Assembly: GCF_053078305.1 (NCBI RefSeq)
Contig: NZ_CP166879.1
Direction: 5' to 3' (one strand)
Length of the DNA stretch: 64,000 nucleotides
Both the position numbers and the translations under genes were made by a program. Shown here piece after piece: positions 13,618 to 22,850 of this stretch. Position 1 is the stretch's first letter, and the number at the start of each line of letters is the position of its first letter. The notes beneath the pieces were generated by a model. It saw only the letters and a list, made by a program, of their open reading frames with translations. It did not search any database and was not told the origin of the DNA.

Positions 13618-13646
13618 AGCCCGCCGGTTCAGGCGGGCTTTTTTGT
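13618..13646 (+). terminator. Rho-independent terminator after lom
   Basis: CAGCCCGCC-GGTTCA-GGCGGGC hairpin followed by TTTTTTG. Confidence 0.7.
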
Positions 13647-13655
13647 GGGGTGAAT

Positions 13656-16600
13656 ATGGCAGTAAAGATTTCAGGTGTACTGAAAGACGGCACAGGAAAA
13701 CCGGTACAGAACTGCACAATCCAGCTGAAAGCAAAACGTAACAGCACCACGGTGGTGGTGAACACGCTGGCCTCAGAAAATCCGGATGAAGCCGGGCGTT
13801 ACAGCATGGACGTTGAGTACGGTCAGTACAGCGTTATTCTGTTGGTGGAAGGATTCCCGCCGTCACATGCCGGGACCATCACCGTGTATGAAGATTCTCA
13901 ACCCGGTACGCTGAATGATTTTCTCGGTGCCATGACGGAGGATGATGCCCGTCCGGAGGCACTGCGCCGTTTTGAACTGATGGTGGAAGAGGTGGCGCGT
14001 AACGCGTCCGTAGTGGCACAGAACACGGCAGCCGCGAAGAAGTCAGCCGGCGATGCCAGCACATCTGCCCGTGAGGCGGCAACCCATGCGACTGATGCTG
14101 CAGATTCAGCACGTGCAGCCAGCACGTCAGCCGGACAGGCCGCTTCGTCGGCTCAGTCAGCGTCTTCCAGCGCAGGAACGGCATCAACAAAGGCCACTGA
14201 AGCCTCAAAAAGTGCTGCCGCTGCAGAGTCCTCAAAAAGCGTGGCAGCTACCAGTGCCGGTGCGGCGAAAACGTCAGAAACGAATGCCGCAGCGTCAGAA
14301 CAATCAGCCGCCACTTCTGCATCCACCGCGACCACGAAAGCGTCAGAAGCTGCCACCTCAGCCCGGGATGCGGCGGCCTCAAAAGAGGCAGCGAAATCAT
14401 CAGAAACGAACGCATCCTTGAGCGCCAGTAGCGCAGCTTCCTCGGCAACGGCGGCAGGAAATTCCGCGAAGGCGGCAAAAACGTCCGAGACGAACGCCAG
14501 GTCTTCTGAGACGGCAGCGGGACAGAGCGCCTCAGCTGCGGCAGGCTCAAAAACAGCGGCTGCGTCGTCTGCCAGTGCCGCGTCAACAAGTGCCGGGCAG
14601 GCCTCAGCCAGTGCCACCGCCGCCGGAAAATCGGCAGAAAGCGCCGCATCATCCGCTTCAACAGCCACAACGAAGGCTGGCGAAGCCACTGAGCAGGCCA
14701 CGGCAGCAGCGAGGTCAGCTTCCGCAGCGAAGACATCCGAAACGAACGCGAAAGCGTCGGAAACCCGTGCAGAATCCTCAAAAACGGCAGCGGCATCGTC
14801 CGCCAGTTCGGCGGCGTCATCGGCATCATCGGCGTCTGCTTCAAAAGATGAGGCGACCAGACAGGCGTCAGCAGCGAAGGGCAGCGCCACGACGGCATCC
14901 ACGAAGGCGACAGAGGCTGCTGGTAGTGCGAAGGCAGCAGCTCAGAGCAAAAGTACGGCGGAATCTGCAGCAACGCGCGCTGAGACAGCGGCAAAACGGG
15001 CAGAGGATATTGCATCCGCCGTGGCACTTGAGGATGCGAGCACGACGAAAAAGGGGATAGTACAGCTCAGTAGTGCGACTAACAGCACTTCCGAGTCACT
15101 GGCGGCAACACCAAAAGCCGTTAAGGCCGCGTATGACCTGGCTAACGGGAAATACACCGCACAGGATGCAACGACAGCACAGAAAGGGATAATCCAGCTA
15201 AGCAGCGCGACCAACAGCACGTCTGAAACGCTGGCGGCAACGCCAAAGGCAGTAAAAGCAGCCAATGACAATGCTGAGAAACGTCTGCAGAAAGATCAGA
15301 ACGGTGCGGATATCCCTGGCAAAGACACCTTTACGAAAAATATTGGTGCCTGCCGTGCCTTCGGTGGGTCAGTAAGCACAACAACAGGAAACTGGACGAC
15401 TGCACAGTTTATCGAGTGGCTGGATTCTCAGGGAGCATTTAACCATCCATACTGGATGTGCAAGGGTTCCTGGTCTTATGGCAATAATAAAATCATTACT
15501 GATACTGGCTGCGGTAATATTCATCTCGCCGGAGCTGTCATTGAAGTAATGGGGATAAAGTCAGCGATGACGATCCGCATTACCACTCCGACCACATCCA
15601 GCGGTGGCGGAACAACCAACGCCCAGTTTACCTATATTAATCACGGAACAGATTATTCACCTGGCTGGCGAAGGGACTATAACTCCAGAAATAAGCCAAC
15701 GGCATCAGAGATCGGGGCGCTACCGTCAGGTGGAACAGCAGTATCATCAGTTAATCTGGCTTCAAAAGGTCGGGTAGCCGCGCTGACAGACAATACGCAG
15801 GGGGCAGCAGGTCTTGAGTTATACGAGGTGTATAACAACGGATATCCAACAACGTATGGAAATATCATTCACCTGAAAGGGATGACAGCCGTTGGCGAAG
15901 GTGAGTTACTCATCGGCTGGAGTGGTACAAGCGGTGCTCATGCTCCGGCATTTATTCGTTCACGACGGGATACGACCGACGCAAACTGGTCGCCGTGGGC
16001 GCAGCTTTACACCTCGGCTCATCCTCCTGCAGAGTTTTATCCAGTCGGTGCACCAATCCCGTGGCCATCAGATACCGTTCCGTCTGGTTATGCCCTGATG
16101 CAGGGGCAGACTTTTGACAAATCTGCATACCCGAAACTTGCAGCCGCTTATCCGTCAGGCGTGATCCCTGATATGCGTGGCTGGACGATTAAGGGCAAAC
16201 CTGCCAGTGGTCGGGCCGTATTGTCTCAGGAACAGGACGGCATTAAATCGCACACCCACAGCGCCAGCGCATCCAGTACGGATTTGGGGACGAAAACCAC
16301 ATCGTCGTTTGATTACGGCACTAAATCCACGAATAACATCGGGGCGCATACGCACAGTGTGAGCGGTACAGCCGCAAGTGCCGGAAACCATACTCATAGT
16401 GTCACAGGCGCATCAGCAGTCAGCCAGTGGTCACAAAATGGGTCAGTACATAAGGTAGTGTCTGCGGCCAGTGTGAATACAAGTGCTGCAGGAGCGCACA
16501 CTCATAGTGTCAGCGGCACAGCTGCATCTGCAGGTGCTCACGCACATACTGTCGGTATTGGTGCTCATACGCACTCGGTTGCGATTGGCTCACATGGACA

Positions 16601-16682
16601 CACCATCACCGTTAACGCTGCTGGTAACGCGGAAAACACCGTCAAAAACATCGCATTTAACTATATTGTGAGGCTTGCATAA
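13656..16682 (+). CDS. stf: Side tail fiber protein Stf, apparently intact, with Ala/Ser-rich repetitive shaft and His-rich C-terminal repeats
   Basis: ~1008-aa ORF; N-terminus [49 protein letters not shown]... and C-terminus ...[31 protein letters not shown] match K-12 StfR/lambda Stf family as recalled. Confidence 0.85.
14050..15010 (+). repeat. Low-complexity Ala/Ser/Thr-rich tandem repeats inside stf coding sequence
   Basis: Repeated motifs such as [19 protein letters not shown]; the run also generates long spurious ORFs on both strands (14153..14902 -, 14248..15027 -, 14575..15060 +). Confidence 0.7.
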
Positions 16683-17266
16683 TGGCATTCAGAATGAGTG
16701 AACAACCACGGACCATAAAAATTTATAATCTGCTGTCCGGAACTAATGAATTTATTGGTGAAGGTGATGCATATATTCCGCCTCATACAGGTCTGCCAGC
16801 AAACAGTACCGATATTGCACCGCCAGATATTCCGGCTGGTTTCGTGGCTGTTTTCAACAGTGATGAGTCATCGTGGCATCTCGTTGAAGATCATCGGGGT
16901 AAAACGGTTTATGACGTGGCTTCCGGCGACGCGTTATTTATTTCTGAACTCGGCTCATTACCGGAAAATGTCACCTGGTTATCCCCGGAAGGGGAGTTTC
17001 AGAAGTGGAACGGCACAGCCTGGGTGAAGGATACGGAAGCAGAAAAACTGTTCCGGATCCGGGAGGCGGAAGAAACAAAAAACAGCCTGATGCAGGTAGC
17101 CAGTGAGCATATAGCGCCGCTTCAGGATGCTGTGGATCTGGAGATCGCAACGGAGAAAGAAACCTTGTTGCTGGAAGCCTGGAAAAAGTATCGGGTGTTG
17201 CTGAACCGTGTTGATACATCAACTGCACCTGATATTGAGTGGCCTACGAACCCTGTCAGGGAGTAA
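16682..17266 (+). CDS. tfa: Tail fiber assembly protein Tfa
   Basis: 194-aa product [54 protein letters not shown]... matches the TfaR/Tfa family; start overlaps the stf stop. Confidence 0.88.
17101..17228 (+). repeat. Direct repeat copy 1 (tfa 3' end), roughly 85% identical to 18150..18277
   Basis: Sequences beginning CAGTGAGCATATAGCGCCGCTTCAGGATGCTGTGGATCTGGAGATCGCAACGGAG and CAGTGAGTATATTGCGCCACTGCAGGATGCTGTAGATCTGGAAATCGCAACGGAG align; identity is an eyeball estimate. Confidence 0.75.
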
Positions 17267-17320
17267 TCATTGGGATTATGCCGCAGCACGTCTTAAGCAA
17301 GAACGTGCTGCGGTTGGATG

Positions 17321-17989
17321 CTATTTTTTCCCTGAAGCGGAAAACATTACTACAGTACCTTGAACCTTGGTTTTAACATTCTCGAAATGCTCTGAGAGTA
17401 TATGTGTTAAGCCTTCTTCGGAATCTTTTGTGTTTGAAAAGATGCCTTTCTGATTGTAAATGCGCATCAGTTTTTGACCGAAGCTATTGTGCACAACTCC
17501 ATCGCCAAGAATTGTGGCTCCGTATAGAGTTCCATCGTCAGTTAAGGCCTGCGCCGCATTGCGTATTACACAGCTTTTTGTAGATATATTTCCAGGCAGG
17601 CAGTGAAGAAGGTAAAACATGGAAATGGAATCAAATTGACCATGTAACGCCGCGGGATAAGGTTCAAAAACATCATGGTTAATTTTATGTTTAATTTTTG
17701 ATTCCCCAGCCCTTGTAGATGCCGCGTTCAGGCTAGCTTCGTTCAAATCCATTAAAGATATCAGACTACTCTCAGGTACGTGAGTAAGGTAAAACCCAGT
17801 TCCAACACCAATATCCAGATGGTTGTTACCTAAATGTTCCAGAAAGTGTGGAAGAAGGTGTTCCTTTGTAGGACATCCCCATGCAAGCCGATTTGATACT
17901 CCCAAAACCCACCAGTCATAAAGCTTTAGGGTAAGTGGTGTGTAAATTTTAGCCCCATCATCTGTGTTTTTTTTCATTAATTTCACCAT
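17321..17989 (-). CDS. Class I SAM-dependent methyltransferase-like protein (resembles DLP12 ybcY family), prophage cargo
   Basis: 222-aa ORF with glycine-rich motif I (LDIGVGTGFY) typical of Rossmann-fold methyltransferases; AT-rich codon usage; lies between the two tfa-derived repeats. Confidence 0.65.
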   Translation of the reverse strand: MVKLMKKNTDDGAKIYTPLTLKLYDWWVLGVSNRLAWGCPTKEHLLPHFLEHLGNNHLDIGVGTGFYLTHVPESSLISLMDLNEASLNAASTRAGESKIKHKINHDVFEPYPAALHGQFDSISMFYLLHCLPGNISTKSCVIRNAAQALTDDGTLYGATILGDGVVHNSFGQKLMRIYNQKGIFSNTKDSEEGLTHILSEHFENVKTKVQGTVVMFSASGKK

Positions 17990-18149
17990 GTTATAGTTTT
18001 ATTTGTGAATTAAATCAATTATGGCGATGAATTACAAGGGGTTAAATGCTGCCGCAGCATAGCGATATTGAAATAGCATGGTATGCTTCGATACAGCAGG
18101 AGCCGAATGGCTGGAAGACCGTCACCACACAGTTCTACATCCAGGAATT

Positions 18150-18277
18150 CAGTGAGTATATTGCGCCACTGCAGGATGCTGTAGATCTGGAAATCGCAAC
18201 GGAGGAAGAAAGATCGTTGCTGGAGGCATGGAATAAATATCGGGTATTGTTGAATCGAGTTGATACATCAGTAGCTC
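18150..18277 (+). repeat. Direct repeat copy 2 (tfa 3' end remnant)
   Basis: See copy 1 at 17101..17228. Confidence 0.75.
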
Positions 18278-18351
18278 TGGGTATGAAGCTGTTTGTAACT
18301 CATGTTACAGTAACAGCCATTACTATCTCGAAGGTGCAAAATGTATATTGA
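18150..18351 (+). pseudogene. Tail fiber assembly gene remnant (tfaX-like 3' fragment)
   Basis: Translation ...[40 protein letters not shown] duplicates the Tfa C-terminus; no homologous N-terminal part. Confidence 0.6.
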
Positions 18352-18534
18352 TTTGATATTTTATAAATTTACTTCGAATCTGGCACGTCAACTTTTGATT
18401 AAAGTAATATCAGTTTTCGGCGAAAAAAGGACCGTGTACATGAGACGATTTCATACAAGAATAACAAAAATATGAATATGCTCCCAATGCAATATATGTT
18501 TTGCATTGGGAACAAATAGCGGAATATTTTGAAA

Positions 18535-20019
18535 TTATTGTATTTCTGCTTCAGAATTTCCTGGGCAGTATATATTTTCTGGTTTTTGTGGAGTGATCAG
18601 GTGATGTACAACTGCTTTATCTACACATAAATTAACTCCGGTGAGAGCTAATGTATGCCCATCACCATTTATTGTTAGTAACGGGCTGGAAAATTTCTCT
18701 GCCATCTTACGGGCATTAATCCAGGGCGTTGTTGGGTCGTATTTGTGTGCTACAAACAGTAAACCAGAGGGCAGAACAGTATTTTTCAGGCGAGTTTTGT
18801 TCAGGTCGCTATGTATTGGCCATAATTCACAAAAATCAGGTGAATCGGAACGTCCATTGTCAAAGTTAATAGCCGGGAAGGCATTCGCAAGAGCGTCTTT
18901 TCGGGATTTTCGCTCTTCTGGTGTTAATTGCTCATCCCCCTGATCTACACAGAGGATTACCCCCGAAGCATCGCTTGACTCTTCTGAGGCTATCGGAGCA
19001 CTGAGCGCAGTTTCAATTTCATTACTGACAATCCCCTGAGAGAACTGGCGTATGGCAGTTGCAAGGGTTGGCCATGATGAACGCCATAGCAGAAGGTCTG
19101 TTGTTAATGATATGAGTTCATCTGAAGATATATTTTCTCCCTTACTGTCTAATAAAGGTTTGTGATGTAATTTTGATAATAGCTCATGGAACTGAGTTAT
19201 TGCCTTATCTCTGTCTGAAGAAAGCGGGCAACTTTTTGTACGCGCACACCAGGATGCAAAGCGATCAAACGTTTCCTGATAACTCTGTGCCTGTTTGAGT
19301 TGCCATGTGAAGTTGTCCTCCAGGTCATCGATATCGACGACTCCATCAAGAACGATAGATCTTACGTTGTAGGGAAAACGTTCTGCATATAAGGCTGCAA
19401 TTTGAGTTCCATACGAATACGCCACGGCTGTCAGTTGTTTATCCCCCAAGGCTTGCCTAATACGATCAATATCGTATACAGCCTCGTTAGAGCCGATATG
19501 GCGAATGACTTCGGCTCCGGTATTATGGATACAGGCATTAATTTTATTTAATACTTGTTGCTTTTCGGTTATGTTTTCCTGAGTCTCTGTATCTGATTGC
19601 CGGCAGTTTATTGTCGGAGTGGACTGTCCGACGCCTCGAGGATCAAATCCAATAATATCCCATGACTCACGAAGATTTGTGACTGGCCAGTCAAAGTTAA
19701 TATAAGGATTTATGCCTGGTAACCCGGGACCACCACTTATTATCAGGATACTTCCTTTATGCTTGCTTTTTGCCGGCAATTTTGTCAACGCTAGTTTGAC
19801 TTGTGATTTTTTTTCATAAGAAGCATCTCCGCCTGTGTCTGTATATTTTAATGGAACAGACAAATAACCACATAGTAAGTCAGGAGACGGTTTTTCCTCA
19901 CCAAACCAGTGGTTGAATTGACTGGCCATACAGGATTGCCACTGTATCTGCTGGGCAGATACGGTTACTGGTAGAAGTAACGTTAAAACAACTTTGAAAT
20001 GAGTAATTATTTTTCGCAT
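18535..20019 (-). CDS. Secreted alpha/beta-hydrolase fold protein, likely S33-type (tripeptidyl aminopeptidase-like) peptidase/esterase; function unknown
   Basis: 494-aa ORF with N-terminal signal peptide MRKIITHFKVVLTLLLPVTVSAQQ, GFDPRGVGQS oxyanion-region motif and SYGT nucleophile-elbow-like motif; AT-rich. Confidence 0.65.
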   Translation of the reverse strand: MRKIITHFKVVLTLLLPVTVSAQQIQWQSCMASQFNHWFGEEKPSPDLLCGYLSVPLKYTDTGGDASYEKKSQVKLALTKLPAKSKHKGSILIISGGPGLPGINPYINFDWPVTNLRESWDIIGFDPRGVGQSTPTINCRQSDTETQENITEKQQVLNKINACIHNTGAEVIRHIGSNEAVYDIDRIRQALGDKQLTAVAYSYGTQIAALYAERFPYNVRSIVLDGVVDIDDLEDNFTWQLKQAQSYQETFDRFASWCARTKSCPLSSDRDKAITQFHELLSKLHHKPLLDSKGENISSDELISLTTDLLLWRSSWPTLATAIRQFSQGIVSNEIETALSAPIASEESSDASGVILCVDQGDEQLTPEERKSRKDALANAFPAINFDNGRSDSPDFCELWPIHSDLNKTRLKNTVLPSGLLFVAHKYDPTTPWINARKMAEKFSSPLLTINGDGHTLALTGVNLCVDKAVVHHLITPQKPENIYCPGNSEAEIQ

Positions 20020-20205
20020 TGTGTCTCTGAATATCGGAATAAAGATAAGATTTGAATATATTGAGGTCTTGTGTTGCGGTAAGAGATTACACGTTATGAC
20101 ATAGGTTAAATGCTTACAAAATTAGTGGATATTGCCTACTTGTAACTGTAAACAAATTCCCCGGGGTTATACAATACCACCGGGGAGAAAATCTGGTTAA
20201 CTTCG

Positions 20206-21159
20206 TTAAAAGGTGTACTTAAGACCAGCAGTAGTGATGAAGTTATAGTTTTCTATGCCTGCACCATTTTTGCTGTAGTCTGAAGTGTTATCATTGTGAT
20301 CATAAAGTGAAGTATTACCTTTTTTATTCGTAACCCGATTCCATGCGCCTTCAACATAAACCTTTGCGTTAGGTGTTACGTAATAACCTGCATTGACTGC
20401 AACAGAATAGTAATTTTGGTCTTTGACTTTACTGCGATAAGTGATTCTTTTTCCTGGGTCATAGTGCTCATCGTTATCAGATGCTTCCACCCAGCCGCTG
20501 TATTTAAATGTGCCACCTAGCTCAAAATCTTCATAACGATAACTTCCAGTCAAGCCAATGTAGGGCATTTTAAAACGTTGTTTGTAGCCGATTGCTCTTT
20601 CTCCATTCGGGAAGGAGCCGATATCATCTCTGAATCCCTCCTCAGAACTGTAGATATAGGAACCACCTCTGGCTGTAAAGCTATAACGGCTTTCCTGATA
20701 TCCGGCCATGAGTCCCAGGCGGTAATTGGGTTCGTTGAGGAGCCAGCCTTTGATATTCAGATCAAATTCGTTGGCATAATTGAGTTGTGTATCAGGGTGC
20801 CTACTTTCATCTGTCCAGGTTCCGGGGTTACTGGAATCCATCCAGTCCTGATCGACCATATTGCCACCTCGGCTGCCGAGAGTAGTCCAGCCCGCAGCCC
20901 CAATAGATATCTGGGGCATCAAATCCCAATTAATTGCACCTTTAATAATTGCAGCGTTATTGAATTTCCAGTCGAGTTGACTGACTTTTCGGCCTCCTTC
21001 TTCAGCTAGATAAACGCGCTCTTTTGTTTTTCCGCTCAGAGTTCCAAGACTAATGTCCGCATTTATGTTGTCAGGAGTAAACGATATAGTCTCGGTAGAA
21101 GCAAAAGAGCTGATCGCAATAGGGGTTGTCAGAACTATTCCCAGAAGTTTCGCCCGCAT
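20206..21159 (-). CDS. ompT: Omptin-family outer-membrane aspartyl protease, near-identical to OmpT
   Basis: 317-aa product MRAKLLGIVLTTPIAISSFASTETISFTPDNINADISLGTLSGKTKERVYLAEEGGRKVSQLDWKFNNAAIIKG... ending ...NFITTAGLKYTF, matching E. coli OmpT as recalled. Confidence 0.9.
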   Translation of the reverse strand: MRAKLLGIVLTTPIAISSFASTETISFTPDNINADISLGTLSGKTKERVYLAEEGGRKVSQLDWKFNNAAIIKGAINWDLMPQISIGAAGWTTLGSRGGNMVDQDWMDSSNPGTWTDESRHPDTQLNYANEFDLNIKGWLLNEPNYRLGLMAGYQESRYSFTARGGSYIYSSEEGFRDDIGSFPNGERAIGYKQRFKMPYIGLTGSYRYEDFELGGTFKYSGWVEASDNDEHYDPGKRITYRSKVKDQNYYSVAVNAGYYVTPNAKVYVEGAWNRVTNKKGNTSLYDHNDNTSDYSKNGAGIENYNFITTAGLKYTF

Positions 21160-21531
21160 AAAAGTTCTCCATTCAATCGTTTTAATGATTGAATATGTAT
21201 TTTTTATATCTAACTTAATGAGTCAATCACATATTGCTCCACTGTTTATATTTTGTTTAGTATTGAATGATTATCACAATGCGCTATCTGTTTTTGGTTT
21301 AATTATCTGTTATTGTTTTATGTTGCGGTTTTACTGTGTGGTTTTTTATGCTTTTGTGGTGTTTTTATCTATTTAAGCGCCATGCCTTTAAAGGCATATA
21401 AGCGAAAATAGCATGAGGTTTATCCTCAATTGCTATGTTTTTTAGTACAAAAAAGAGGGACAAAACTGAGACACACATAGCTTTGTACTGGATTGCAAGG
21501 CTTTGTGCTCTTCGATAGTGGTTAAGGCGGA

Positions 21532-22689
21532 TTACTCCACCTTCCCATCAAGCCAGTCCGCCCACCATTGCATCATTTCTCTGCGCTTATCGAGATACTG
21601 AGCATGGTTGTAAATTCCACGTACAGATCCGCCGTTGGCATGTGCCAGTTGCACTTCAATGGCGTCGGCAGGCCATTCGTGCTCGTTCATAATCGTGCTG
21701 AATTCATGCCTGAATCCGTGACCGCTTTCCAGACCTTCATAGCCGATTTGTTTGATCACAAGTAGCACCGCGTTCTCGCAGATTGGCTTCTTCTTATCGT
21801 TGCGCCCGGAAAAAACAAACTCTGATACTGGTTTAGTGATTGAGCTTAGTGTAGTGAGAAGTTCAACCACCTGGTCTGACATCGGGACAACATGAATTTT
21901 GCGTCCCTTCATCACATTGGCGTCGATGGTGATAATCCTGTTTTCAAAATCGACGTTCTTCCATAGCATGGAACGAAGCTCTTTTGTTCTGAGGGCTGTG
22001 TAGCGTAAAACTTTGGTCGCAATGAGCGATACGATGCTTCCTGAAAATGTTGCCAGTGCTTTGTTAAATGCCGGGATCTGGTCTGCAGGAAGAAACGGGA
22101 AGTTTTTCTTGCGGTATCCCTTCATGGCGTCAGCAAGGTCAGGTGCCGGGTTATATTTAGCCCTACCAGTGACAATAGCGTAACGGAAAACCTCGCCGCA
22201 TCTTCTGCGGGCTTTGTTGGCTCGCTCCATTGCACCGCGATCTTCAAATCTGCGGATTACTTCCAGCAGTTGCATCGGCTCAATATCCTGAATTTCAAGG
22301 CCGCCGATGATAGGTAAAATGTCGTCATCAAACATTTTTGCAAGTTCAGTTGCATAGCCTACTGACCAGACTTGCTTCTTGTGCTCGTACCATTCCTTGT
22401 AAATCGCACTAAAGGAATTGTTGTTAGACGAAGCCTTTTTCGCTTTTACCGGATCGATGCCAACCGAGATGTCTTTCCTCGCGGTCCATGCTTTATCTCT
22501 TGCCTCCTGCAAAGTCATAAGCGGATATTTTCCTACGGTCAGGATTTTCTCCTTACCGTCAATCTTGTAGCGAAGCTGCCATACCTTTTTCCCTGACACA
22601 GGGACATAAAGGTACAGGCCATTACCATCGAGTAGGCGGTATGGTTTTTCTTTCGGCTTTGCTGCTTCAATCTGCTTAACGGTGAGCAT
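21532..22689 (-). CDS. intS: Prophage tyrosine integrase (IntS/P4-like family)
   Basis: Product MLTVKQIEAAKPKEKPYRLLDGNGLYLYVPVSGKKVWQLRYKIDGKEK... with C-terminal catalytic region (..HGFRHEF..., ..RGIYNHAQY..); adjacent to tRNA; start chosen at the MLTVKQ Met (ORF track extends to 22725). Confidence 0.88.
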   Translation of the reverse strand: MLTVKQIEAAKPKEKPYRLLDGNGLYLYVPVSGKKVWQLRYKIDGKEKILTVGKYPLMTLQEARDKAWTARKDISVGIDPVKAKKASSNNNSFSAIYKEWYEHKKQVWSVGYATELAKMFDDDILPIIGGLEIQDIEPMQLLEVIRRFEDRGAMERANKARRRCGEVFRYAIVTGRAKYNPAPDLADAMKGYRKKNFPFLPADQIPAFNKALATFSGSIVSLIATKVLRYTALRTKELRSMLWKNVDFENRIITIDANVMKGRKIHVVPMSDQVVELLTTLSSITKPVSEFVFSGRNDKKKPICENAVLLVIKQIGYEGLESGHGFRHEFSTIMNEHEWPADAIEVQLAHANGGSVRGIYNHAQYLDKRREMMQWWADWLDGKVE

Positions 22690-22850
22690 GGGTAAAAATC
22701 CGGTGGGTAAAATTATTTTATCCACTTTTTACCCGTCATGGAGTGCGGCTGTCAACGATCTGAAGCGAACCATGACGAACTGTGAATCTACGGAAGGCTT
22801 GATATTCAGGGGATTTTGCGGACTGGTACGGATGGAGGCGAACTGATAAA

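Follow-up and report, generated by a model that had tools for sequence, protein, structure and literature searches.

The 64,000-nucleotide stretch of contig NZ_CP166879.1 (RefSeq assembly GCF_053078305.1) analyzed here, referred to below as the window, carries an AT-rich cargo block at positions 17267-21531, between the tail-fibre genes and the integrase gene of a lambdoid prophage. We read this cargo as a mosaic of two unrelated parts, one of which, a PhoP-driven cassette that pairs an omptin with a periplasmic hydrolase, would serve in envelope defence (probability of this reading, roughly 0.55). The cassette consists of ompT (20206..21159, minus strand), which encodes a 317-aa omptin outer-membrane protease recognized by the NCBIfam model NF008222, and, downstream on the same strand, a gene (18535..20019, minus strand) for a 494-aa, predicted exported alpha/beta serine hydrolase of the Hip1/TAP-like type, identified by Pfam, phmmer and AlphaFold/Foldseek comparisons. 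The original prediction had left it open whether the methyltransferase, the hydrolase and the omptin encoded in this block were independent morons or a functionally linked envelope module; the three separate on this point, in that the omptin and the hydrolase form a conserved, co-diverging cassette, whereas the methyltransferase lies outside it. What is new here is an uncharacterised Hip1-like hydrolase as a conserved companion of OmpT and OmpP, and no new kind of system.

Among 5426 complete E. coli genomes, the hydrolase gene was found in 1253 (~23%), and in 1220 of the 1229 genomes in which at least 80% of its length was matched, it is contiguous with ompT. Contiguity on E. coli chromosomes alone could reflect a single recent insertion. 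However, hydrolases that are 75-96% identical to that of the window are also each encoded directly downstream of an omptin gene, on the same strand, and these diverged pairs are located on plasmid-like contigs (L015, L016 and L023), on the ColV-type plasmid p111, which holds the fifth diverged version of the cassette, and on the classical F plasmid. The hydrolase versions P0006, P0002 and P0005 (75-82% identical) are found on plasmid-like contigs, each directly after the gene for an omptin of 315 aa; the F plasmid has ompP at 32322-33269, followed by the hydrolase gene at 33374-34861. In PLSDB, ompP and the hydrolase gene occur together on 156 plasmids, and OmpP is essentially never found without the hydrolase. 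One of the few decayed, unpaired copies is on a plasmid of strain CFIAFB20190157 (L004 7000-8483), where a 90% identical hydrolase gene is frameshifted and has no adjoining omptin gene.

We compared six diverged versions of the cassette, including those of the window and the F plasmid. The identities of the omptin and the hydrolase range from 69.7/75.2% to 98.7/97.4% and are correlated over the 15 pairs, which are not independent of one another (r = 0.88). The ratio of nonsynonymous to synonymous substitution rates (dN/dS), estimated at dS of 0.3-2.3, lies in the range 0.12-0.18 in the hydrolase gene and 0.07-0.16 in the omptin gene; the two genes thus co-diverge under purifying selection. All six cassettes have a perfect PhoP box, located 95-103 bp before the omptin ATG. 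That of the window, TGTTTATATTTTGTTTA (21243..21259, plus strand, i.e. the strand opposite ompT), lies 84-100 bp upstream of the ompT ATG and is the sole zero-mismatch match in the entire 64 kb. A sigma-70 promoter-like site, TTGACT-16 nt-AAAAAT (21199..21226, minus strand), picked up by a consensus scan only, is located upstream of ompT as well.

The spacers between the omptin and hydrolase genes have a common architecture: in the alignment, one and the same GC-rich hairpin opens all six of them, and a ribosome-binding site closes them. In the window, the hairpin, UCCCCGG...CCGGGGA (20158..20186, minus strand), lies 20 nt past the ompT stop codon and has a predicted folding energy of -20.6 kcal/mol (z = -2.5); we propose that it serves as an attenuator or a weak terminator. 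In the OmpP-type spacers of 92 nt there is little besides the hairpin and the ribosome-binding site, and thus there is no room in these short spacers for a separate promoter. Just past the hydrolase stop codon, a terminator scan detected a second hairpin with a 14-bp stem (18479..18514, minus strand; -22 kcal/mol, z = -5.2), and none of 200 shuffled sequences was as stable; this hairpin is the proposed 3' end of a putative cassette transcript. In a microarray study of O157:H7 Sakai, the hydrolase gene (ECs1662) and ompT (ECs1663) fell in the same cluster, with log2 changes of -2.53 and -2.72, respectively, on entry into stationary phase (PMC2241611).

The ompP locus of the F plasmid shares with the window the PhoP box, the omptin (70% identical), the hairpin and the hydrolase (76% identical), but its vehicle is a plasmid rather than a phage, and its OmpP-type spacer is 92-104 nt long, compared to 186 nt here. 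The annotated start of the F plasmid hydrolase (33374 in the annotation by the Prokaryotic Genome Annotation Pipeline, PGAP) is probably four codons short, as in the aligned cassettes a conserved ATG with a ribosome-binding site stands 12 nt upstream (L026 33362-33374). In a published description of the isolate cystitis 6, 'ymcE', which is presented as a putative cold shock gene, follows ompT at a distance of 186 bp on its downstream side (PMC6854850, section 3.5). That distance is exactly the ompT-hydrolase spacing of the window, and the hydrolase context may have been labelled differently there.

From the comparison of these sequences, we conclude that the unit PhoP box-omptin-hairpin-hydrolase-terminator is likely to be ancestral, and that the contexts of K-12 (with appY) and of the CFT073 type would be secondary losses. 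The reverse, namely insertion of the hydrolase gene into a DLP12-like ancestor in place of appY, was considered and rejected, because the pair exists in six diverged forms and because the CFT073/S88-type context retains the ompT-proximal 160 nt of the spacer without the hydrolase gene.

The hydrolase matches Pfam families PF00561 (Abhydrolase_1, E = 5e-33, residues 91-460) and PF08386 (Abhydrolase_4, TAP-like, E = 3.4e-15, residues 386-485), the same pair that is found in Hip1 (Rv2224c, CaeA) of M. tuberculosis and in the Streptomyces tripeptidyl aminopeptidases Tap, SlpD and SlpE. With phmmer, it has a full-length match to Hip1 (7sfm, 5ugq; E = 1.6e-51), and although the identity is only ~27%, the homology extends over the full length and includes the triad and ten cysteines. 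The putative catalytic triad Ser202 (in AYSYG)/Asp428/His455 aligns with S228/D463/H490 of Hip1 and is invariant across 18 homologues. Ten cysteines show complete or almost complete conservation in the same set, and all of them have a cysteine counterpart in the alignment with Hip1, which is consistent with five disulfides in an exported protein. Hip1 itself is a serine protease/esterase of the cell envelope, for which the triad S228/D463/H490 is reported and five disulfides are predicted (PMC4022732). The N-terminus of the hydrolase reads as a Sec-type signal peptide ending in VSA|QQ. An AlphaFold model (predicted local distance difference test score, pLDDT, 86.3; predicted template-modelling score, pTM, 0.87) agrees with the fold of Hip1, in which a large helical lid is added to an alpha/beta core, and the six best Foldseek matches of this model are Hip1 structures (TM 0.74-0.82, the top ones at 0.76-0.82), followed by TnmK1 and TnmK2 and then by prolyl aminopeptidases; DPP7/PRCP peptidases as well as prolyl aminopeptidases are among the further structural and sequence matches. 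Assignment to the prolyl aminopeptidases proper (TIGR01249) was rejected: the hydrolase scores 35.8 bits against a cutoff of 259.75, over residues 167-263 only.

Thus, the hydrolase is, by homology, an uncharacterised full-length relative of Hip1 and a TAP-like alpha/beta serine hydrolase. Both proteins would be extracytoplasmic, the hydrolase by virtue of its predicted signal peptide, but Hip1 has a mycobacterial envelope anchor, whereas the hydrolase belongs to a Gram-negative bacterium and has a plain Sec signal peptide; moreover, it is borne by phages and plasmids and paired with an omptin, and its enzymatic activity and any role in virulence, such as that of the tuberculosis virulence protease Hip1, are putative. 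Its PHROG family is phrog_20134, of unknown function there, and its annotations are otherwise generic, apart from the label 'putative lactone hydrolase' in some phages. Apart from one entry in a microarray table (PMC2241611) and one passing remark on sequence similarity, no study of the hydrolase or of its pairing with omptins was found in the literature, in which subscription journals were thinly covered, so that the absence is no proof.

The omptin is OmpT in the strict sense. It scores 708 bits against NF008222 (cutoff 537), over residues 1-317 of 317, and differs from K-12 OmpT by three residues; its motifs retain all four catalytic residues (Asp83, Asp85, Asp210 and His212 in mature numbering). 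Cleavage of cationic antimicrobial peptides is an established activity of OmpT-like omptins (PMC6854850).

Under the proposed mechanism, the PhoPQ system of the host would switch on the cassette from a single promoter in the lysogen. OmpT, whose cleavage of cationic host-defence peptides at the cell surface is established, would be inserted in the outer membrane, and some of the transcripts would read through the hairpin and yield a smaller amount of the hydrolase, provided that the two genes are co-transcribed. The hydrolase, presumably Sec-exported and disulfide-rich, would reside in the periplasm, where, with an intact Ser-Asp-His triad like that of Hip1, it would most likely provide a second line, as a peptidase or esterase whose targets are peptides or envelope substrates entering this compartment. 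Together, the two enzymes could provide a two-layer envelope defence that the phage gives to its host.

Several observations weigh against this reading, and several of them are shared with the explanation that all three products are passengers of the prophage b-region with no relation to one another, the omptin and hydrolase genes staying adjacent through co-inheritance of a compact fragment, an explanation that we consider possible, if on the doubtful side. OmpT is common without the hydrolase: ~1900 genomes have ompT alone, with the slot occupied by appY or with ybcY joined directly to the ompT flank (PMC6854850), and OmpT works alone in K-12, so that the hydrolase partner is evidently dispensable. 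The slot 3' of omptin genes is plastic, as it is filled by appY in K-12 and by hlyF and mig-14 after ArlC, with no partner after IcsP. Distant homologues of the hydrolase (at most 54% identical; Budvicia, Salmonella, Serratia and a contig of the Logan assemblies of the Sequence Read Archive) stand alone, with no omptin neighbour, so that only the clade with at least 75% identity shows the pairing. The prophage version of the hydrolase is at least 99% identical in 1212 of the 1260 matching records, consistent with the recent spread of one unit, and, more generally, adjacency on mobile elements can reflect a small co-inherited unit with no functional coupling. RNAalifold applied to the six spacers kept the stem in the consensus with no covariation support, i.e. 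what is conserved in the hairpin is its sequence alone. In the prophage version, a U-rich run comes after the ompT hairpin, which may be an efficient terminator, and the 186-nt spacer of the window could hold an independent promoter. Finally, no experiment on the hydrolase was found in the literature, so that its substrate and periplasmic location are putative, and the relatives of Hip1 include the non-peptidase enzymes TnmK1 and TnmK2.

What speaks for the cassette over an association of co-inherited passengers is that adjacency, gene order, strand, PhoP box and spacer hairpin have been kept through 20-30% protein divergence, at dS of ~1 or more. They have been kept, moreover, in lambdoid phages as well as in IncF plasmids, which are highly mosaic vehicles and very unlike each other. 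The short-spacer versions without room for a separate promoter, and the near-absence in PLSDB of OmpP without the hydrolase, point in the same direction.

ArlC sits in the same slot of the RepFIB/integrase backbone as ompP of the F plasmid but is followed by an SDR oxidoreductase gene (hlyF) and mig-14, with no hydrolase gene. On the ColV-type plasmid p.CT30-P2 (L029 5001-9890), compared to F (L026 32322-37620), the ArlC-type omptin gene is located upstream of the same tyrosine recombinase gene and RepFIB. Since hlyF and mig-14 replace the hydrolase gene in a shared slot, the position 3' of E. coli omptin genes appears to be a swap site for envelope-related partners. The ArlC/OmpTp island PI-6 has a reported role in antimicrobial-peptide resistance (PMC6854850).

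A different view of the hydrolase, which we deem unlikely, is that it is a carboxylesterase or lipase whose substrates would be lipids of the envelope or the host, or else molecules with ester linkages; it would be another member of the PhoP envelope-remodelling regulon, and any link to OmpT would be regulatory only. The original name of Hip1 was carboxylesterase A, and p-nitrophenyl butyrate is among its substrates (PMC4022732; PDB names), a triad of the alpha/beta-hydrolase type cannot tell esters from amides, some phage annotators chose the lactone hydrolase label, and two of the structural neighbours, TnmK1 and TnmK2, are enzymes other than peptidases. However, the nearest characterised relatives, Hip1 and the Streptomyces tripeptidyl peptidases, are proteases (PMC4022732), and prolyl aminopeptidases and DPP7/PRCP peptidases form the next tier of matches. 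In Serratia, the gene for the chromosomal homologue is followed by a gene for a solute-binding protein of the SBP_bac_5 family, which consists mainly of peptide-binding proteins, and this hints weakly at peptide metabolism. An anti-phage or superinfection-exclusion module, in which the methyltransferase and/or the hydrolase would protect the lysogen from other phages, is very improbable: lambdoid b-regions are a known place for exclusion genes, the hydrolase has a full-length match to the PADLOC model PDLC01094 ('C3a206', described only as 'TAP-like protein'; E = 4.5e-57) and the methyltransferase a weak one to the MADS model mad2 (E = 7e-4), but the former is a single protein-family model with no partner genes of any defined system seen, the methyltransferase does not resemble DNA methyltransferases, phage DNA in the cytoplasm is out of reach for an enzyme that is exported and rich in disulfides, and none of the homologue contexts examined is a defence island. 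The suggestion of anti-phage genes in the original prediction thus finds no real backing, with that one PADLOC match lacking any system context.

The preferred reading, that of a PhoP-driven omptin-hydrolase cassette, can be extended to a broader and rather doubtful proposal, namely that the OmpT and OmpP omptins have an overlooked ancestral partner, a PhoP-co-regulated, periplasmic Hip1-like hydrolase, and that the resulting two-compartment proteolysis contributes measurably to antimicrobial-peptide resistance, colonisation or virulence in ~23% of E. coli. If so, cleavage at the surface would be followed by trimming in the periplasm, in carriers that include O157, the extraintestinal pathogenic E. 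coli (ExPEC) strain S88 and cattle-associated ompP plasmids, and the loss of the hydrolase in K-12 would explain the lack of study. OmpT has long been studied as a protease and serves as a standard virulence marker, and nearly all mechanistic work on it has been done in K-12, i.e. without the neighbouring hydrolase. Should the hydrolase help the bacterium to resist peptides or to interact with its host, phenotypes and host associations now ascribed to ompT or ompP, for example the cattle association of ompP (PMC10088187), could be partly its own. Inhibitors and assays developed for Hip1 exist and are directly applicable to the hydrolase.

The other part of the mosaic is the methyltransferase gene (17321..17989, minus strand; open reading frame list and Pfam), which encodes a 222-aa S-adenosylmethionine (SAM) methyltransferase of the YbcY type and is 97% identical at the DNA level to K-12 ybcY. 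The protein matches the Pfam families Methyltransf_12 (E = 2e-9) and also Methyltransf_23, _25, _11 and _31, and hence has a SAM-binding Rossmann fold by family assignment; it belongs to PHROG 2132, a family of unknown function, and its homologues across Enterobacterales have generic names only. In NCBIfam, both the methyltransferase and the hydrolase have sub-threshold matches only. Its best structural relatives, small-molecule O-methyltransferases such as UbiG and juvenile-hormone acid methyltransferase, are only weakly similar (E ~1e-3), no match to a DNA-methyltransferase family was found in Pfam or NCBIfam, and no nuclease or specificity gene adjoins the gene among the open reading frames of the window. 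Judged by these matches, it looks like a small-molecule enzyme.

Upstream and downstream, the methyltransferase gene is flanked by two copies of the tfa 3' end, a 132-nt direct repeat (17090..17221 and 18139..18270, both plus strand) with 83% identity and a spacing of 1049 nt, as identified by a repeat search. The second copy lies within a 101-aa open reading frame (18046..18351, plus strand) that is a tfaX-like C-terminal remnant (PHROG 2341 and 105; annotated by PGAP as 'tail fiber assembly protein, incomplete, missing N-terminus'), and the copies cross-match tfaD and tfaX of K-12. We read this pair of repeats as marking a recombination scar or mosaic joint and, because the repeat brackets the methyltransferase gene, we regard the latter as a passenger from recombination between tfa genes. 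None of the plasmid copies of the omptin-hydrolase pair is accompanied by the methyltransferase gene, which is a separate passenger, outside the cassette.

The block as a whole begins after tfa (16682..17266, plus strand; tail fibre assembly, PHROG 105 with E = 3e-100, and PGAP), the last morphogenesis gene, and ends at intS, which encodes a tyrosine integrase of the KplE1/CPS-53 type (21532..22725, minus strand, as the longest open reading frame; 21532-22689 in PGAP) and is transcribed away from argW. The open reading frames were located as originally predicted, and the lower GC content of the block was likewise evident, at 0.408 for 17267-21531, compared to 0.562 for the tail and morphogenesis genes (1-17266) and 0.51 for the host flank. 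The gene argW, for tRNA-Arg(CCU), was located at 22851..22925, and the attachment core of the prophage is at its 3' end (22850..22865, minus strand), where the reverse complement is CTGCAGGGGACACCAT, the published KplE1 core (PMC2951348).

E. coli 2014C-3307 matches the window with 100% identity, and its PGAP gene calls agree, with the order class I SAM methyltransferase, partial tail fibre assembly protein, alpha/beta hydrolase, OmpT, IntS, tRNA-Arg, yfdC and mlaA. Upstream, the gene order in this strain is that of a complete lambdoid phage, from torI, exo-bet-gam, repressor/cro, O/P, the nin region, Q, the porin gene and the lysis genes through iss/bor, terminase, head and tail genes, J, lom and stf to tfa. 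The core CTGCAGGGGACACCAT recurs, with 15 of 16 nt, beside torI, 49.5 kb off (L005 8033-8048). Given the core at the 3' end of argW and the repeat beside torI, the block lies within a single KplE1-type prophage, and it is the accessory (moron) region of one 49.5-kb lambdoid prophage at argW with a KplE1-type IntS/TorI module; the attachment to an IntS-type integrase at argW had been foreseen, and PGAP, the core at argW and the TorI-side repeat agree on it. The block has the features of a lambdoid b-region moron, being located between the tail-fibre genes and att/int, on the strand opposite to the late operon and with an atypical GC content, and phage ev243 has the same arrangement; the moron or cargo position between tfa and the integrase that had been proposed is thus borne out by PGAP, the 2014C-3307 prophage order and ev243.

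An integrase gene beside tail-fibre genes would be odd for lambda itself, and the adjacency of intS to the tail genes was considered as an anomaly and rejected as such: the recombination module is of the KplE1 type, in which att is upstream of intS, intS is transcribed away from attL and the excisionase TorI is at the opposite end, and for this reason the integrase gene lies next to the tail-fibre genes. KplE1 (CPS-53) shares with this prophage the transcription of intS away from argW, the 16-nt core CTGCAGGGGACACCAT and TorI at the far prophage end, but in K-12 it is a 10.2-kb remnant, whereas here the module serves a complete 49.5-kb lambdoid genome (PMC2951348). The cargo adjoining intS is also different, being the DLP12-type ompT block in this prophage. 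In the K-12 element the genes beside intS are of the O-antigen-modification type. In the argW prophage of 2014C-3307, to the left of the window, the nin region includes a gene for a NACHT-domain protein (L005 18714-20609), and a DGQHR-domain protein is encoded beside the recombination genes (L005 10221-11285); both look like defence-type morons.

With presence defined as a match to at least 80% of its 4265 bp, the block was found in 1168 of the 5426 genomes. It is a routine, widely annotated DLP12/Sp8-type prophage end, present in Sakai Sp8 and in phages such as ev243 and 2G7b, which is one half of a refuting outcome named in the original prediction; the other half, that the 494-aa protein would turn out to be a well-characterised enzyme, did not come about, as this protein has generic names and belongs to phrog_20134. 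The only rare feature of the block is its junction with intS/argW, which is present in 16 of the 5426 genomes. Temperate phages ev243 (genus Nesevirus), 2G7b, PhiR49_1, PhiR26_1, PhiR30_1 and Turner carry the block with 99% identity, and in all of these the phage-borne copy likewise sits between the tail fibre genes and the integrase gene.

The layout in K-12 DLP12, tfaD-ybcY-tfaX-appY-ompT-envY, is as given in the original prediction. DLP12 matches window positions 16828-18245 and 20202-21504 with 97% identity, i.e. over tfa-ybcY-tfaX and over ompT with 345 bp upstream, in the common order tfaD-ybcY-tfaX-ompT, whereas the segment 18246-20201, which contains the hydrolase gene, occupies the position of appY, in line with what had been predicted for the secreted hydrolase. 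DLP12 further differs in that appY is convergent with ompT and that ybcY is a pseudogene in K-12 but intact here. The appY version is also present on an active phage, PhiR68_2. Prophage Sp8 of O157:H7 Sakai holds the block as ECs1656, ECs1657, ECs1662 and ECs1663, with 98.8-98.9% identity over the methyltransferase gene, the tfa remnant, the hydrolase gene and ompT, but with ISEc8 inserted between the tfa remnant and the hydrolase gene. In all three cases, DLP12, Sp8 and the window, the block is at the tail-fibre end of a lambdoid prophage; that of the window abuts intS/argW rather than the prophage end at the DLP12 or Sp8 site.

In a third variant, the methyltransferase flank is joined straight to the 3' flank of ompT and the segment corresponding to 18076-20044 of the window is absent; this variant was observed as the second copy in S88 and agrees with the CFT073-type context described previously (PMC6854850). 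S88 also holds the block at the DLP12 site, beside this older tfa'-methyltransferase-ompT remnant, and thus has tandem ompT copies (L002 8001-15300): the full methyltransferase-tfa'-hydrolase-ompT block is followed by a truncated integrase gene, then by the older remnant without the hydrolase gene, and then by ybcH-nfrA, a locus that looks like the product of successive prophage insertions at one site.

Elsewhere in the window, the side tail fibre gene (13650-16682) has a long Ala/Ser/Thr-rich low-complexity region with a GC content of 0.59-0.63, which yields many spurious overlapping open reading frames on both strands. A second low-GC stretch (25000-26500, 0.30-0.38) is located in the host flank around yfdF and is unrelated to the prophage.

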